DNA from: Escherichia phage DCP2
Strand: one strand, 5' to 3'
Sequence record: OR780565.1
Length of the DNA: 64,000 bases
Each line of letters begins with the position of its first letter. Position 1 is the first letter of the stretch. The notes below the pieces were generated by a model. It had not been told where the DNA came from. It did not search any database and saw only the letters and a list, made by a program, of their open reading frames with translations. Positions 2,261 to 60,834 of this stretch are shown here, one piece after another. Position numbers and translations under genes: made by a program.

Positions 2261-2551
2261 ATGAAATCTTCTTTGCGCTTTTTAGGTCAAGAACTCATAG
2301 TTGAAGGCGTTATTCCTGCTGATAACGCTTTTAATGAAGCGGTTTACGACGAATTTATCAAAATTTTTGGAACAGATAAAAAGTTCGGAATTTTTCCTTC
2401 TGAAAATTTCTCAAAGCCAGAACAGACTGAAAGCATTTTCCAGGGTGTAGTAACAGGTAAATTTGAGTCAGAAACTCCGGTAAAAATTGAAGTTTATATT
2501 GAAGACAGTTTAGTTGCTTCAGTTGCTGCTTTTATTTCATTCCGTAAATAA
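2261..2551 (+). CDS. hypothetical small protein between alt and gene 54
   Basis: 96-aa ORF with ATG start, preceded by an early-promoter-like element and followed by a hairpin. Confidence 0.5.
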   Translation: MKSSLRFLGQELIVEGVIPADNAFNEAVYDEFIKIFGTDKKFGIFPSENFSKPEQTESIFQGVVTGKFESETPVKIEVYIEDSLVASVAAFISFRK

Positions 2552-2556
2552 AAACA

Positions 2557-2574
2557 TGGGGACCTTTCGGTCCC
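2557..2574. terminator. bidirectional stem-loop (GGGGACC-TTTC-GGTCCCC)
   Basis: Perfect 7-bp inverted repeat between convergent genes (96-aa ORF on plus, gene 54 on minus). Confidence 0.6.
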
Positions 2575-2579
2575 CATTG

Positions 2580-3545
2580 TTATATTGCTCCTAATATTTT
2601 ACTTTGCGAGTTGACAATTCCCGTCATAGTATTAATGTTTGAAATGCTTCCAGCAGTTCCTCCTAATCTACTAAGTCGTGAAAGCGAATTAGATAGTCCA
2701 GTAACACCTCCACTATTTCCGAGAACGCTTTGAATGCCATTTATAGCAGCAGATTCAAGCCATTCAAGCGCAGCTTGTCTATCAACTGCTCCAGCCTGCA
2801 TGACTCTATACGCAAAAGTAACATCAAATGTAGTTATTTGATTATCTCCATCATATGATAACTCAGGAGCGCTCACTGACACTGGAATGCATCCGGTGAA
2901 CATCACAGCAGTATGAGGTAATCCATTACGAGCATGAAGATTAACCTGAATGTCTGCCTCGACATCTTGTGGCAAAGCACGCAGTCCAGTTACTGGGTCT
3001 TGAACAGCGTTAACCCAGTCTTGCATTGCACGATAATTACATGCTTCTGAATCCATTCTAAATGAAATAACCAAAGGGTCTAATTCTCTCCCAGTTATAC
3101 GAATATTAGGAGAATTATAGTTCCAGTCAGTTTCATAGGATAATCTATTCTCTGGCATTTTTACAGAATATATCATCAATCCAGATGAGTTATATGCCAT
3201 GTTAAAGAAGTCAATTAAATATGTACCAACTGTAAATGAGCCCAATAAACTTTGAACTGTACGTTGACTCATGGCACCAATAAGATATTTACTAACCCCT
3301 GATTTTCTTATCAGTTTTTGTGTGCCAGCAGTAATTAGCGTGGTAATTCCCTGATTAATATCGCCTTGAGTCAATCCTAACCAATCTGAATTTAGACCCA
3401 AGTTATTATAAGAAAAGTTGCTAATTGAACTTATCAACGAAGAGCTTTTAGTTGATGGAGTTGTCGCAAAAACGCAGCTAAACATATTATTACGTTGGAA
3501 ATCTGCGTTTATTGCTTGATTATTAAATTCCTCTAAAGAATACAT
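2580..3545 (-). CDS. 54: gp54 baseplate tail-tube initiator
   Basis: 321 aa (T4 gp54 320 aa); position in the 54-48-29-28-27-51 block. Confidence 0.85.
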   Translation of the reverse strand: MYSLEEFNNQAINADFQRNNMFSCVFATTPSTKSSSLISSISNFSYNNLGLNSDWLGLTQGDINQGITTLITAGTQKLIRKSGVSKYLIGAMSQRTVQSLLGSFTVGTYLIDFFNMAYNSSGLMIYSVKMPENRLSYETDWNYNSPNIRITGRELDPLVISFRMDSEACNYRAMQDWVNAVQDPVTGLRALPQDVEADIQVNLHARNGLPHTAVMFTGCIPVSVSAPELSYDGDNQITTFDVTFAYRVMQAGAVDRQAALEWLESAAINGIQSVLGNSGGVTGLSNSLSRLSRLGGTAGSISNINTMTGIVNSQSKILGAI

Positions 3546-4639
3546 TAAAAAGTCCCCGCATATAAAGAAGCACGGTTTAACGTGATAATTTCTCTCATAG
3601 TAATCTCAAGAGTAAATGTACTAGGGAGGTTTGGAGCAATAGCTAATCCGTTAAAGTTACCATTAGGCGTTTTATCAAATCTGATGCTTTGTATTTGGCA
3701 TGGGCCAAATATTTCCGTTTTTCCATCAAACTTAGATGTTGCACCAAAGTTTTTCACCATCCAAATTGTCGGGTTTGAAACTACTAGAACGTTAGTTAAA
3801 CTCGATGTCATTTTCTCAAATAGTGTTTTATTTTTAGCTGCGTCTTCCGGAGATAAAGGTTCAATTAACGTAGAACGATACCAATCATCTAAATACCCCT
3901 TTATTTCAGCAGCATATTGAGATTTGCCCGTTTCACCATAAGAAAAATAGTTAAAATATTGATAGATATTAATAATAGCCATTAAATCTTCTGTGGAACG
4001 TGGAGTCAAATCCCATGTAAACACTTTAGTTCTATTCTCAGCACCACCATACATACTTCTGGCTGTCGTATAAATCTGTTCATTATTGTCAGCCATTATA
4101 CCTTGTGTTATACTTTCCAGTGCCCCAAATACTGCAGTTGAAGCAATATTACTTAGCACACCAGTAGCAGTACCTCCGCCTCTGCTGATAAGACTTTCTT
4201 GAACATCATTAAATCTATGTGATGATGTATCAACATCAGATTTAGATCTTGGTAAAAGAATATTTGCAACAGGGGCTTTACTTATTGTTCCTGAATTATT
4301 ATCTGATATTAATCCATTTGACAGTTTTGATACTGTATTACTGATAGTGTTTCTGGCTGTACGTAAAATACTCGAAGATGAAGAAGAGTAGTTAGATCTC
4401 ATCGATCTAAGACTTCCAGAATCCCTAGATGACATATTGTATGCAGTAAATAATAATCCATTCTTATATAGATCTGTTACCTGGAAGTCCCCTGTAGTGC
4501 CATTACCACTAGCACGCCCAGTTGGAAACTGGGCAGTGTATGTTTTAGTTGCTACTTCTGATTTAGTACTCTGTCCGGCTGAAATTTTCTCACCGGACTT
4601 TTTAATTAAATCAGCAGTTATTTCTTTAACAATTGCCAT
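3545..4639 (-). CDS. 48: gp48 baseplate tail-tube junction protein
   Basis: 364 aa, same as T4 gp48; synteny. Confidence 0.85.
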   Translation of the reverse strand: MAIVKEITADLIKKSGEKISAGQSTKSEVATKTYTAQFPTGRASGNGTTGDFQVTDLYKNGLLFTAYNMSSRDSGSLRSMRSNYSSSSSSILRTARNTISNTVSKLSNGLISDNNSGTISKAPVANILLPRSKSDVDTSSHRFNDVQESLISRGGGTATGVLSNIASTAVFGALESITQGIMADNNEQIYTTARSMYGGAENRTKVFTWDLTPRSTEDLMAIINIYQYFNYFSYGETGKSQYAAEIKGYLDDWYRSTLIEPLSPEDAAKNKTLFEKMTSSLTNVLVVSNPTIWMVKNFGATSKFDGKTEIFGPCQIQSIRFDKTPNGNFNGLAIAPNLPSTFTLEITMREIITLNRASLYAGTF

Positions 4640-55996: not shown

Positions 55997-56560
55997 ATGA
56001 AAACCTATGCCGAATTTTTAACCGAAGCAGCAAAATTACCATCTGAAGCAGATCTTACTAAAGTATTCTTCCAATTGGACCCAAAAGACCGCGGCGATTT
56101 TCTTAAGTGGAAAGCTAAAGCTATTGAAATGTACAACATCGATAATAGTTCTTTTACAATGAGTCAAGAAAATAAATTCAATAAAGCATTTTTCAAAATT
56201 TCTAAGAAATTGGCATCTGGCGCTCAGGTTCCTAAATCTGTGTTAGCTACTCCTGAACGCGCACCTGTTAAAATTTCTAAGAATATGTTCGACACTAAAA
56301 AATACGTTAATGCTTTGAATAAAGCTCTTGATGCATTGGATGATGCAAAGAAGGCAGCCCGCGATCTTCAAGACGTGTACACCGATTTTGACCGCAAAAC
56401 TAAAGGTTCTATTTCAAATAGCGAACGCAATAGTGTAAGTGTTTATTCTGATAGCCTTGATGTTCTTGGCGATGCGTATACTGAAATTAAAAATCGTATT
56501 AACACTGCATCTAAGCTAAAAGCTGCTGCAGAAGCTATAATAAGTAAACTAGGTAAATAA
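55997..56560 (+). CDS. internal protein (CTS-bearing, IPIII-like)
   Basis: N-terminal MKTYAEFLTE capsid targeting sequence; 187 aa; followed by ccctatc-taaat-gataggg hairpin plus T-run at 56569-56592. Confidence 0.7.
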   Translation: MKTYAEFLTEAAKLPSEADLTKVFFQLDPKDRGDFLKWKAKAIEMYNIDNSSFTMSQENKFNKAFFKISKKLASGAQVPKSVLATPERAPVKISKNMFDTKKYVNALNKALDALDDAKKAARDLQDVYTDFDRKTKGSISNSERNSVSVYSDSLDVLGDAYTEIKNRINTASKLKAAAEAIISKLGK

Positions 56561-57154: not shown

Positions 57155-57748
57155 ATGAACACACTGAAGAAAATTGTTGAGTTTATTCGCACTAAACTTG
57201 GTTCTGCTATGGCTAAAAATCTATCTGTCGAAGAACAGTATACTGCTGCAGCAGCAAAACTACTTGATAAAATTAAAGATCTAAAAACTGCTTCTGTTAA
57301 ATCTATTAACGAAGAAAAACGTATTCGTGAACTTGTTATCGAAAAGAATCGACAGGCCGAATCAAAAGAGCGTGAAATTCGTAAACTTCTTTCCGAAGGC
57401 CAAGATGTAACAATGCATGCTAAACTCGGTTTACTATATCGTCGAACAGCTGAGCAGTTGACTACTAAGGCTGACGGTTATGCTGAAATGCGAATTGAAA
57501 TCGCCAAGAAAGTAGTTGAGTTAGATGATGCTCGTCAAGAACTTGCGGTTAAATTGGAATATATCCGTGAAACTCGTGCAGCAAATGCCCTTGGAATTAG
57601 TACTGCCGATGATGTAGTTGAAATTGCAGCACTGACTAAGGTTGATATTGAAGATACCCTTGCTCGAGTTGAAACCTTTAACGGTAATATTTCTGGGGTT
57701 GAAACTACCTCTGCCGATGTTCAGGAATACATTAATTCTCTGAAATAA
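57155..57748 (+). CDS. coiled-coil protein, possibly PspA/IM30-like
   Basis: 197 aa, almost entirely heptad-rich helical sequence; the PspA-like call is a weak impression from composition only. Confidence 0.5.
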
Positions 57749-57789: not shown

Positions 57790-58404
57790 ATGAAAATGAA
57801 AATGCAAAGTGATTTCAATTCAATGTTTGAAGAGTTCCAAAGACAGGTTGATGTTCCAGACCAATTACTAAATGCTCTTAAACGCATGGCAGAAGGACGT
57901 AATTACTATTGGGGGTCTTCATATGAAACTGATGAAAGCCTTTCCGGAAGATTTTCTAGAGGTAAAAAGTCTTTAATACGTCCTGGAATACTTATTAACA
58001 GTATTGAATCAATTCATTTATTAACATGTGATTTTGACGTTGAATTTACTGATTTTGTTTCTCCTGAATGGACGGTCTGTTATTTAAACGACGATTATGA
58101 TTATCTTGGCGTTTATAGTTTAAGTGATGCACGGTTTAAACGTAATTTACAAAAGTCAAATTTATTTTATATTGATACTACGGTAAAATTTCAGGGCAAG
58201 AAATATTTCTTTACTCTTATAGTTGATTCTGAAACGAAGCATGAGAATAAACGTATTCTTAGTAAAAAGAATATCTTAACTATTGTTGATGATCTTTTTG
58301 ATAAATTCGTAGAAAATCCCAATTTTGAAAGCGATTTATTACTAGAAAAATTTGTTAAGGAATGTAGAGAATATGTCAAAACCATCACTATACCTTCCAA
58401 GTAA
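57790..58404 (+). CDS. hypothetical protein
   Basis: 204-aa ORF with ATG start and GGA RBS. Confidence 0.5.
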   Translation: MKMKMQSDFNSMFEEFQRQVDVPDQLLNALKRMAEGRNYYWGSSYETDESLSGRFSRGKKSLIRPGILINSIESIHLLTCDFDVEFTDFVSPEWTVCYLNDDYDYLGVYSLSDARFKRNLQKSNLFYIDTTVKFQGKKYFFTLIVDSETKHENKRILSKKNILTIVDDLFDKFVENPNFESDLLLEKFVKECREYVKTITIPSK

Positions 58405-58765
58405 ACCGTTGAAGTATGAATTAAAGCGCCAGCTAATTCCTACTGATGTATTAGTAGGTCCTGTGACAGCTGTATCATTTATAATCCTAATGATTATTGG
58501 AATAGTTATAGATGTTACTACTGATATTGAATCAGACGCAGTATTTCTGTTAGTATTAATTCTTCCATTAGTAGTTCCATTTTTATTAGTACCTGTAAAT
58601 TGGGTAGGATACTGGTATCAAGGAAGACATTATCGTAAACGCGTACGCGAATGGAAAGCTCAGTGTAAAAAGATTAAAAAGGAACATCAGCTTAAACTTG
58701 CTGCGTATGAATTTAATGAAATTATGAAATTTGTTAAGGAATCACGATGCAAAAGCCAAAACTAA
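58373..58765 (+). CDS. small 2-TM membrane protein, paralog A
   Basis: First ATG at 58373 (MSKPSLYLP); two hydrophobic helices then a basic tail ending ..FVKESRCK. Confidence 0.5.
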   Translation: MSKPSLYLPSKPLKYELKRQLIPTDVLVGPVTAVSFIILMIIGIVIDVTTDIESDAVFLLVLILPLVVPFLLVPVNWVGYWYQGRHYRKRVREWKAQCKKIKKEHQLKLAAYEFNEIMKFVKESRCKSQN

Positions 58766-59109
58766 ATAAAGTCAAATATTCGTTTCCAGAGGCACTATTA
58801 ATTCTTGCCATATCAGCATTTGCAGCTCTTGCAGGTAGTCTTATTGGATTAATGATTGACTGTCTTATTTTAAACATCGACGGCACAGTAAATATAACAG
58901 AAGTTTGGAGTGAGCTTTGTTATACTAAAATTATTTCATTGTTTTCATTCTTTGGTATCATTTTATATTTTCATTATGATAATTTTAAAATAAATTGGCA
59001 AAGAAAAAAGGATTACAAAATACAATTAAAAGAATATAATAACTACATGTCTTATATTGAAAAAGAATCAATGGAAGAGTTTGTGAGTGATTGCAGGAAA
59101 ATTAAATGA
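58747..59109 (+). CDS. small 2-TM membrane protein, paralog B
   Basis: 120 aa; two hydrophobic helices then basic tail ..EEFVSDCRKIK; the start lies within the end of paralog A. Confidence 0.55.
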   Translation: MQKPKLNKVKYSFPEALLILAISAFAALAGSLIGLMIDCLILNIDGTVNITEVWSELCYTKIISLFSFFGIILYFHYDNFKINWQRKKDYKIQLKEYNNYMSYIEKESMEEFVSDCRKIK

Positions 59110-59594
59110 TTTTAAAAACTCGCTGGTATGATTTAGATGATGGAGATGATGGCATTCCAGTTGATAGAGTTGATTGGAATGGCTGTTCCGAAGATATGAA
59201 AAATTTGTTGATTAGGGAGTTTAGAATGGGATATCAAGTAGTTAAGCCATCTACTGTAACAGACGATAAATTCGTTTGTATTCAAAACGGTCGTGCTAAG
59301 TTAACGAACGCTGAATGGTTTACGGATAAGAATATGCTTCTGTGGTATATCATTAGTCTTCCTGCGTCATCATTCGTATTTTACTTCTTTGGAAAAAATC
59401 CAATGGACAGAATAGGAGATTGGGCTCTTTGTACTATATTTGTTAATATTTTTACTGCAGCAATATTATCCGGAATATGGTGTGTGTTCATTGAAATGCC
59501 ATGGCGGTTACGCAGACAACAAAAGATTTTTGATGAAAAGAAATATGCTCAAAATTTAAATAACTTTATCACTGAATGCAGGAAATTAAAATGA
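59106..59594 (+). CDS. 2-TM membrane protein, paralog C
   Basis: 162 aa; soluble N-terminal region, two hydrophobic helices, tail ..NFITECRKLK; ATGA overlap with paralog B. Confidence 0.55.
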   Translation: MILKTRWYDLDDGDDGIPVDRVDWNGCSEDMKNLLIREFRMGYQVVKPSTVTDDKFVCIQNGRAKLTNAEWFTDKNMLLWYIISLPASSFVFYFFGKNPMDRIGDWALCTIFVNIFTAAILSGIWCVFIEMPWRLRRQQKIFDEKKYAQNLNNFITECRKLK

Positions 59595-60031
59595 AAACAT
59601 TATCAGCTGGTATTATCTTTATGACAGAAGATAAAGATTTATTTATGGGACGAGTTACCGGTTCTCGTAAACCTGGAATGATTGCACATCGCTGGGATAT
59701 TCCAAAGGGGCGTGTAGAAAGTTCTGATTTGAATGCACTGGAAGCTGCAAAAAGAGAATGCTCAGAAGAGACTGGTTTTATCGATTATAATCCAGACCTT
59801 CTAGAAGACTTAGGTGTATTTAAATATTCTAGTAATAAAGACTTACAGTTATTTTATTATACGATTCCAGTAGAGCATGAGATGTTTAGAAATTGCCATT
59901 GCGAGTCTTATTTTGAAAATAAAGATGGCGTTATGATTCCAGAGATGGATGCTTTTGCTCTTATTCCTCGTACTCAGTGGCAATATGTGATGGGTCCTTC
60001 ACTTTACCGAATAATGAACAGCCTCTTTTAA
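59576..60031 (+). CDS. nudE: NudE Nudix hydrolase
   Basis: 151 aa from the ATG at 59576 (alternative ATG at 59591 gives an ATGA overlap); Nudix box GRVESSDLNALEAAKRECSEETG; directly upstream of e as in T4. Confidence 0.8.
   Translation: MQEIKMKTLSAGIIFMTEDKDLFMGRVTGSRKPGMIAHRWDIPKGRVESSDLNALEAAKRECSEETGFIDYNPDLLEDLGVFKYSSNKDLQLFYYTIPVEHEMFRNCHCESYFENKDGVMIPEMDAFALIPRTQWQYVMGPSLYRIMNSLF

Positions 60032-60834
<803 letters not shown>

Follow-up and report, generated by a model that had tools for sequence, protein, structure and literature searches.

Four consecutive genes of the T4-like Escherichia phage DCP2, e.5, e.4, e.3 and e.2, encode products that end in one short peptide, and the DNA coding for this peptide also holds the putative ribosome-binding site (RBS) of the following gene and lies at the points where these genes have been deleted or fused in natural phages. 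The genes lie upstream of nudE and of the lysozyme gene e in a 64,000-nucleotide (nt) stretch of the phage genome (OR780565.1), which is referred to here as the window. The best overall explanation, to which a probability of about 0.6 was assigned, is an accessory block with a shared peptide, in which the DNA of the tail is used in three ways and the peptide would serve as a docking or assembly helix. A genome-unique C-terminal peptide on four adjacent products, whose coding DNA is both the next RBS and a recombination site, appears to be new. Neither the shared motif, nor its extension to e.5, nor the rearrangements at the junction repeats were found described in the papers searched, and no functional study of e.2-e.5 turned up when the literature was searched by gene name.

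The window belongs to a Tequatrovirus, with 94-99% DNA identity to sequenced Tequatroviruses (for example, D5505, Sf21 and C2-3) over 2.9 kb around the cluster. Its open reading frames (ORFs) correspond one-to-one, and in identical order, to T4 e.6, e.5, e.4, e.3, e.2, nudE and e, and the PHROG matches of e.5, e.4, e.3 and e.2 were full length (expect values (E) from 1e-57 to 1e-109). The ORFs at 58373-59594 correspond to e.4, e.3 and e.2 of T4, which are early, dispensable genes that had been catalogued before; T4 e.2, e.3, e.4 and e.5 (UniProt P32273, P32274, P39222 and P39223) are the same genes as those of the window. In T4, e.2, e.3 and e.4 are annotated as 'conserved hypothetical, predicted membrane protein' (PMC11879866; PMC9697503 supplements).

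The shared C-terminal peptide and its coding DNA

An initial annotation, made from the letters of the window, had placed three consecutive ORFs (e.4, e.3 and e.2) upstream of nudE and e, at coordinates that agree with those in Table 1, and the endings that it had quoted were confirmed, as ..FVKESRCKSQN in e.4, ..EEFVSDCRKIK in e.3 and ..NFITECRKLK in e.2. It had missed that the soluble product of e.5 ends in the same motif (..KFVKECREYVK..); the bearers of the tail are four consecutive genes, not three. The motif can be written L/M/I-x-x-F-[IV]-x-[ED]-C-[RK]. In the six-frame translation of the window, its strict form F[VI]x[ED]C[RK] was seen three times versus 0.21 expected, always at the C termini of e.5, e.3 and e.2. 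Across the whole T4 genome (168.9 kb), the strict form was present only at the ends of the same three products, and a relaxed form near a C terminus only in e.5, e.4, e.3 and e.2.

The families e.5-e.2 were confined to four T-even genera, Tequatrovirus, Mosigvirus, Dhakavirus and Gaprivervirus, the last three being compared through RB69, dhaeg and VR25, respectively. In tblastn searches, neither Dhakavirus e.3 nor the protein in the e.5 slot of that genus had matches beyond these genera, and an exhaustive HMMER profile search of 1.84 billion clusters with e.4 returned seven representatives, all of the T-even group, and no distant relatives. For e.4, 102 homologues were found, all with PF26873, and in T4, RB69 and dhaeg alike the gene lies between e.5 and e.3. 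The e.3 family (46 homologues, 64-100% identity) is syntenic, following e.4, and its orthologues in RB69 and Dhakavirus, at 36 and 19% identity, keep the tail. All e.2 homologues carry PF26896, with e.2 directly 5' of nudE, and the VR25 orthologue (35% identity, E 3e-24) is upstream of nudE as well.

Few blocks are as well conserved within each family as the tail. From genus to genus it reads FVKECREY, FIMECREY or FIAECREY in e.5; FVKESRC, FVKEIRC or FIKEVR in e.4; FVSDCRK, FIKECRK or FIKECKS in e.3; and FITECRK or FIEECRK in e.2. In addition, e.4 harbours an internal W..xC copy, REWKAQCKKIK, in which W94 and C98 are invariant across genera and which is closer to the ends of e.3 and e.2 than the terminus of e.4 itself is. 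This hints that e.4 may have been extended by capture of a second tail. Relative to the tail Phe, positions -3, 0, +1 and +4 are hydrophobic, which suggests that they form one face of a helix.

Two further observations concern C-terminal sequences in the related genera. The Dhakavirus protein in the e.5 slot (dhaeg_125, at 2466-3020 of the dhaeg locus) matches e.5 only over a 15-residue tail, LxxFIxECREYxK (E 3e-4); the tail was retained, whereas the rest of the gene seems either to have been exchanged or to have diverged too far to be recognised. Moreover, Mosig-, Dhaka- and Gapriverviruses have a further tandem array, located between e.3 and e.2 (3231-4026 of the RB69 locus, L003; 3691-4936 of the dhaeg locus, L004; and L011-L014). 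Its three to five ORFs are small and acidic, and each ends W[VFI]SSSxxC, with TAAGGAA-N5-ATG after it; this is another family with a shared C terminus.

The DNA of the tails is repetitive. The near-identical sequence that had been reported at the last two junctions, TGCAGGAAA(A)TTAAA-ATG, is present as TGCAGGAAAATTAAATG at 59092-59108 and TGCAGGAAATTAAAATG at 59577-59593, and each copy is part of a longer, 30-nt repeat with 80% identity (59080-59109 versus 59565-59594), the top direct repeat of the region. The initial annotation had overlooked an exact 16-nt repeat, AAATTTGTTAAGGAAT, at the e.5/e.4 and e.4/e.3 junctions (starting at 58348 and 58727).

As had also been proposed, the tail codons hold the RBS of the next gene: the best duplex between Shine-Dalgarno (SD) and anti-SD sequences lies 5-10 nt 5' of each ATG and, at each junction of the window, the SD falls inside K-E or C-R-K codons. 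Consecutive ORFs overlap by 32 nt (e.5/e.4), 19 nt (e.4/e.3) and 4 nt (e.3/e.2, as ATGA), and e.2 and nudE overlap by ATGA at 59591; the two ATGA overlaps have AGGAA 6 nt upstream. Given the close packing of the genes and the overlaps between stop and start codons, e.5-e.4-e.3-e.2-nudE are likely translationally coupled. RNA structure at the four junctions was not significant relative to shuffles (z from -0.7 to +1.6), and a promoter scan was uninformative (27 sites versus 23 expected), with no strong promoter match at the junctions.

Concerning the last junction, T4 annotation starts nudE at an ATG at 59576, inside the e.2 tail (MQEIKMKT..., 151 amino acids (aa)). A later ATG, at 59591, forms the ATGA overlap with the stop of e.2, follows the AGGAA, and is the start kept in recombinants that have lost e.2; the 146-aa form that begins there is probably the correct one.

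Given this overlap of coding and initiation signals, the shared ending could be a by-product of translation initiation, with SD and AU-rich leader overlapping the preceding ORF and the peptide itself functionless. The placement of the best SD match in every tail and the ORF overlaps are consistent with such an origin, as is a Mosigvirus contig (L009) in which e.3 is internally deleted and its 3' junction kept. However, the peptide survives synonymous multi-base changes, for example from AGG to CGT or CGC at Arg: across families and genera the tail uses AGA, AGG, CGT, CGA and CGC for Arg, TGT and TGC for Cys, TTT and TTC for Phe, and GAA and GAG for Glu. The SD itself moves between motif codons, from K-E to C-R-K and, in VR25, to E-E codons, and lies outside the motif, downstream of it, at the Dhakavirus e.5>e.4 junction. 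Furthermore, VR25 e.2 still ends LNSFIEECRK ahead of an unrelated downstream gene. Translationally coupled cistrons of the ATGA type combine the same stop/start overlap with an SD inside the upstream ORF, but ordinary coupled junctions do not force a common, cross-genus-conserved peptide on the upstream proteins, and none of the many other coupled T4 junctions yields this one. The by-product explanation is thus improbable, and the earlier view, in which the RBS accounts for the motif, was too narrow, as the peptide is kept while codons and SD position change. Since the motif is kept across four genera with synonymous codon changes, comparison of the coding sequences shows that the tail peptide itself, and not only the embedded SD, is under selection.

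Membrane architecture and kinship of e.4, e.3 and e.2

Hydropathy (Kyte-Doolittle, 19-residue windows) bore out the two hydrophobic helices that had been ascribed to each of the three proteins. The segments are at residues ~29-47 and 56-78 of e.4 (~58457-58513 and 58538-58606), ~16-43 and 57-76 of e.3 (~58792-58875 and 58915-58974), and ~77-95 and 106-131 of e.2 (~59334-59390 and 59421-59498), where they follow an N-terminal soluble domain at 59106-59330. By the same measure, none was found in the flanking e.5, e.6, nudE or e. The predicted periplasmic loops are of 8-14 residues and are acidic in e.4 and e.3 (net charge -3), and the C-terminal domains carry net charges of +10 (e.4), +2 (e.3) and +6 (e.2). 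As this charge distribution fits, the topology of all three proteins is probably N-in/C-in, with a basic cytoplasmic tail. An AlphaFold2 (AF2) model of e.2, built from an eight-sequence alignment, was of low confidence (predicted local distance difference test (pLDDT) 48); it has helices at residues 69-94 and 99-161, the second continuing into the tail. The AF2 model of e.5, from a single sequence, had a pLDDT of 45.

The initial annotation had called e.4, e.3 and e.2 a triplet of paralogues. This was supported only in part: e.4 and e.3 are similar beyond the tail, whereas e.2 shares the tail only, and the transmembrane (TM) parts of the three are without detectable similarity. Pairwise BLASTP and hhalign with shallow within-genus profiles gave little beyond the tail, and cross-genus profiles, to which the RB69, dhaeg and VR25 orthologues were added, were needed to reveal a match between the cytoplasmic domains of e.4 and e.3. 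With these, hhalign aligned e.4 and e.3 over 42 columns, which comprise the whole cytoplasmic domain after TM2 (E 4.5e-5, probability 69%). For e.2 versus e.3, only the 17-residue tail aligned (E 3.7e-5), and e.2 versus e.4 was not significant (E 0.15). When the tail was removed and residues were shuffled within topological segments, the similarity of e.4 and e.3 was marginal (p ~0.03, z 2.3) and neither pair with e.2 was significant; shuffling of whole sequences exaggerates the e.4-e.3 similarity (z 5.6). No signal of similarity was detected among the TM regions of the three. On these alignments, a homologous C-terminal module is well supported and paralogy of e.4 and e.3 is plausible, while e.2 as a whole-gene paralogue is unproven.

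These data also bear on the possibility that the genes are tandem duplicates of one ancestor with two TM helices, in which case the tail would be the part that has diverged most slowly, kept homogeneous by gene conversion, and e.5 would have acquired its tail by recombination with a neighbour. The three proteins have the same architecture; in each of two genera, e.4 could be aligned with e.3 in register (E 1e-3, and E 2e-4 for the dhaeg pair by itself); their N termini are alike (MSKPSL and MQKPKL); and the patch CCTGTGACA..TCATT (PVT..SF) at the start of TM1 is common to e.4 and e.2. In addition, the exact 16-nt repeat is present in Tequatrovirus and not in RB69, which suggests local homogenisation. 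Yet the TM similarity is undetectable and the match of e.2 is confined to the tail, and gene conversion cannot explain conservation of a peptide across genera with differing codons. Descent by duplication is therefore a serious but tentative account, and it is compatible with, not exclusive of, a functional shared peptide.

The initial annotation had further hinted at superinfection exclusion or lysis timing. The proteins could, in principle, be holins, antiholins, lysis-timing or superinfection-exclusion factors encoded beside the endolysin gene, two genes upstream of e: like class II holins and T4 Imm, they are small, with two TM helices, an N-in/C-in topology and a charged cytoplasmic C-terminal domain. 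Such holin-like architecture is, however, generic and not diagnostic. In T4, lysis depends on gene t, and imm and sp account for exclusion. No match to Imm, Sp, holins or antiholins was found in Pfam, PHROG, NCBIfam, PADLOC or the PDB, Imm and Sp families being absent among Pfam and PHROG matches even at E up to 1 or 0.1. More broadly, sequence searches of Pfam, NCBIfam, PADLOC and the PDB with e.5, e.4, e.3, e.2 and e.6 gave nothing above noise; among the PADLOC defence models, a weak TM-composition match of e.4 to a 4TM effector (E 0.0085) was the only one. The periplasmic loops are short, the conserved surface is cytoplasmic, and several kilobases lie between e and the e.4 and e.3 genes of RB69 and Dhakaviruses. 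Unlike holins, moreover, the genes are expressed early and are dispensable. The T4 RNAs of e.2-e.5 were classed as early, and mass spectrometry detected each of the four proteins (PMC9697503 supplements). Knock-down by dCas13d (CRISPRi-ART) scored e.2-e.5 as 'Not Fit' (PMC11879866), and transposon mapping by HIDEN-SEQ scored them as 'Non-essential', with 27/27, 37/37, 42/43 and 52/53 insertion sites tolerated, and e as essential (10.1101/2025.11.20.689424); neither knock-down nor insertion in e.2-e.5 thus affected fitness. A role in lysis or exclusion is thus very improbable.

Natural rearrangements and a proposed role of the block

In a number of relatives, the block is rearranged. The e.2 gene is exactly absent from L005 (an IMG/VR contig of 167,948 bp) and from PP01, where the stop of e.3 overlaps the start of nudE. 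The resulting junction combines the left half of the e.3 repeat (copy 1) with the right half of the e.2/nudE repeat (copy 2), and e.3 in the phages lacking e.2 ends CRKLK rather than CRKIK, an ending also seen in e.3 clusters P0003, P0007, P0018 and P0025. As e.2-like genes lie 5' of nudE in Gaprivervirus as well, these cases look like deletions, not insertions. At the level of Tequatrovirus, ~511, 498 and 447 records (by identity bins) carry e.4, e.3 and e.2, respectively, so that roughly a tenth are without e.2. In UFV05 and UFV06, e.3 is deleted and an in-frame fusion, e.4(1-32)::e.2(90-162), has its crossover within the shared CCTGTGACA. WG01 has no e.4, and its e.5-slot gene directly adjoins an e.3-like gene. 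Truncated variants of e.3, e.4 and e.5 were also found. In L005, moreover, a frameshift divides e.5 into two ORFs, of 145 and 92 aa (1917-2532), which represents further decay of the block in a phage lacking e.2.

The e.2 gene of T4 itself is broken. In the reference (L001, NC_000866, 5491-5961, minus strand) and in an independent assembly (OZ035787, ~140258), indels of -1 and +1 lie ~80 nt apart; the annotated product is of 102 aa, and the tail is left over in an ORF of 63 aa. In the window and in most relatives, e.2 is intact.

As read from these genomes, the pattern is that of an accordion-like array of dispensable genes that decays and re-fuses. The junction repeats and the TM1 patch probably serve as substrates of this recombination.

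Taken together, e.5-e.4-e.3-e.2 may be viewed as a T-even accessory block that is closely packed and transcribed early. Three of its products are probably small proteins of the inner membrane, each with two TM helices joined by a tiny periplasmic loop and with N and C termini facing the cytoplasm, and all three, like the soluble e.5, end in one short, probably helical peptide. The DNA of the tail would have three roles: it codes for a peptide kept by selection at the amino-acid level, it carries the SD of the next cistron (whose position is observed and through which the two would be coupled), and its repeats coincide with the breakpoints of the deletion and fusion variants, for which they probably serve as recombination substrate. 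The peptide would then be a common cytoplasmic docking or assembly helix, by which e.5 and the membrane anchors may attach, on the inner side of the membrane, to each other or to a partner that they have in common. The block as a whole would be a redundant, conditionally useful module of host interaction and not part of the core lytic programme.

Several points weigh against this explanation. The AF2 models of e.2 and e.5 are poor. The overlapping translation-initiation region surely explains part of the conservation of the tail. Nor is the motif strictly uniform, as the terminal copy of e.4 has S, I or V at the Cys position, and some natural e.3 variants (P0037 and P0040) are without the tail. 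The amphipathicity of the tail is moderate (hydrophobic moment p from 0.02 to 0.16 versus shuffles). T4 lives with a broken e.2, so any function is dispensable. Finally, recombination at the repeats is deduced from its end products.

A more specific version of the docking explanation is that the tail is a dedicated assembly tag, by which e.5 (or its Dhakavirus replacement) and up to three interchangeable anchors form one inner-membrane complex. This version is rather unlikely as it stands. If it were true, the tag DNA would be a plug-in point, because it is also the RBS of the next cistron and a recombination site, and gene bodies swapped in there would automatically be translated and targeted to the complex.

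Neighbouring features and comparison with known systems

The features of the block and its surroundings are listed in Table 1.

Table 1. Coordinates of the e.5-e.2 block and of adjoining features in the window
Feature	Position	Strand	Description	Support
e.6	57155-57748		197 aa; highly conserved, mostly helical, coiled-coil-like; just 5' of the block	
GC-rich hairpin with UUCG loop	57751-57772	+	between e.6 and e.5; upstream edge of the packed run e.5-e.4-e.3-e.2-nudE	
e.5	57790-58404	+	soluble, 204 aa; ends ..LLLEKFVKECREYVKTITIPSK	phrog_2607 E 9e-109; T4 annotation
Exact 16-nt repeat, copy 1, AAATTTGTTAAGGAAT	58348-58363	+	codes for KFVKE of e.5; holds AAGGA SD for e.4	
e.4	58373-58765	+	130 aa	phrog_2604 E 5.5e-70 over 1-130/130; PF26873 precomputed on homologues
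CCTGTGACA at start of e.4 TM1	58460-58468	+	microhomology with e.2 TM1 of related phages	
Internal copy of tail motif in e.4	58646-58678	+	REWKAQCKKIK	
Exact 16-nt repeat, copy 2	58727-58742	+	codes for KFVKE of the e.4 tail; holds SD for e.3	
e.3	58747-59109	+	120 aa; ends ..MEEFVSDCRKIK	phrog_2330 E 1.3e-57
Junction repeat, copy 1, TTTGTGAGTGATTGCAGGAAAATTAAATGA	59080-59109	+	e.3 tail and e.2 start	
e.2	59106-59594	+	intact 162-aa form; tail ..NFITECRKLK	phrog_2203 E 5.6e-76; PF26896 precomputed
CCTGCGTCA	59361-59369		e.2 counterpart, in the window, of the e.4 TM1 patch	
Junction repeat, copy 2, TTTATCACTGAATGCAGGAAATTAAAATGA	59565-59594	+	e.2 tail and nudE start	
nudE	59591-60031	+	Nudix hydrolase	PF00293 E 3.8e-13; phrog_1185; T4 annotation
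e	60068-60556	+	T4 lysozyme (endolysin); own strong SD TAGGAGGT; uncoupled from the cluster	

The hairpin between e.6 and e.5 has equivalents in RB69 and dhaeg with compensatory base changes. It is without a T-run on the + strand and may therefore be an element of RNA stability or processing rather than a terminator. The N- and C-terminal residues of e.6, as listed for the ORFs, are nearly identical across the four genera. A relationship of e.6 to PspA/IM30 was considered and was unsupported, PF04012 being absent from its Pfam matches at E up to 1. Genes resembling those of internal head proteins, with a leader of the capsid-targeting type at their start (MKTY(A/S)EFL), lie at 55997-56560 and 60553-60834. 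The latter overlaps the stop of e by ATGA; at this place T4 has ipIII and ipII after an intergenic gap.

Public records name homologues of e.3, e.4 and e.6 as 'sulfurtransferase', 'DNA primase', 'major capsid protein' or 'host specificity protein'. None of these names was supported by any hidden Markov model library used, and they look like propagated misannotations. For annotation, the analysis thus indicates an intact e.2 of 162 aa, a nudE start that is probably the ATGA-coupled ATG, and several public product names without support.

About half of the T4 genes, e.2-e.5 included, are still without an assigned function. A shared peptide on four adjacent products offers a concrete, testable handle on e.2-e.5, and proof of a host target, or of a complex that depends on the tail, would add to its significance.

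Among known systems, the repeats are best set beside PeSL (promoter(early) stem-loop) cassettes, which consist of short, repeated regulatory elements, lie between non-essential genes in T4-type phages and act as sites of homologous recombination that delete, insert or swap gene modules (PMC2839356; PMC4122927). The deletion of e.2 fits this recombination logic. Unlike PeSLs, however, the repeats described here are inside coding sequence, carry an RBS instead of the sigma-70-like early promoter and terminator stem-loop of the intergenic cassettes, show no significant folding, encode a conserved peptide and are confined to one block. Repeats of this coding, RBS-bearing kind may drive gene loss and fusion in the hyperplastic regions of T-even genomes, and would complement the PeSL cassettes in doing so.

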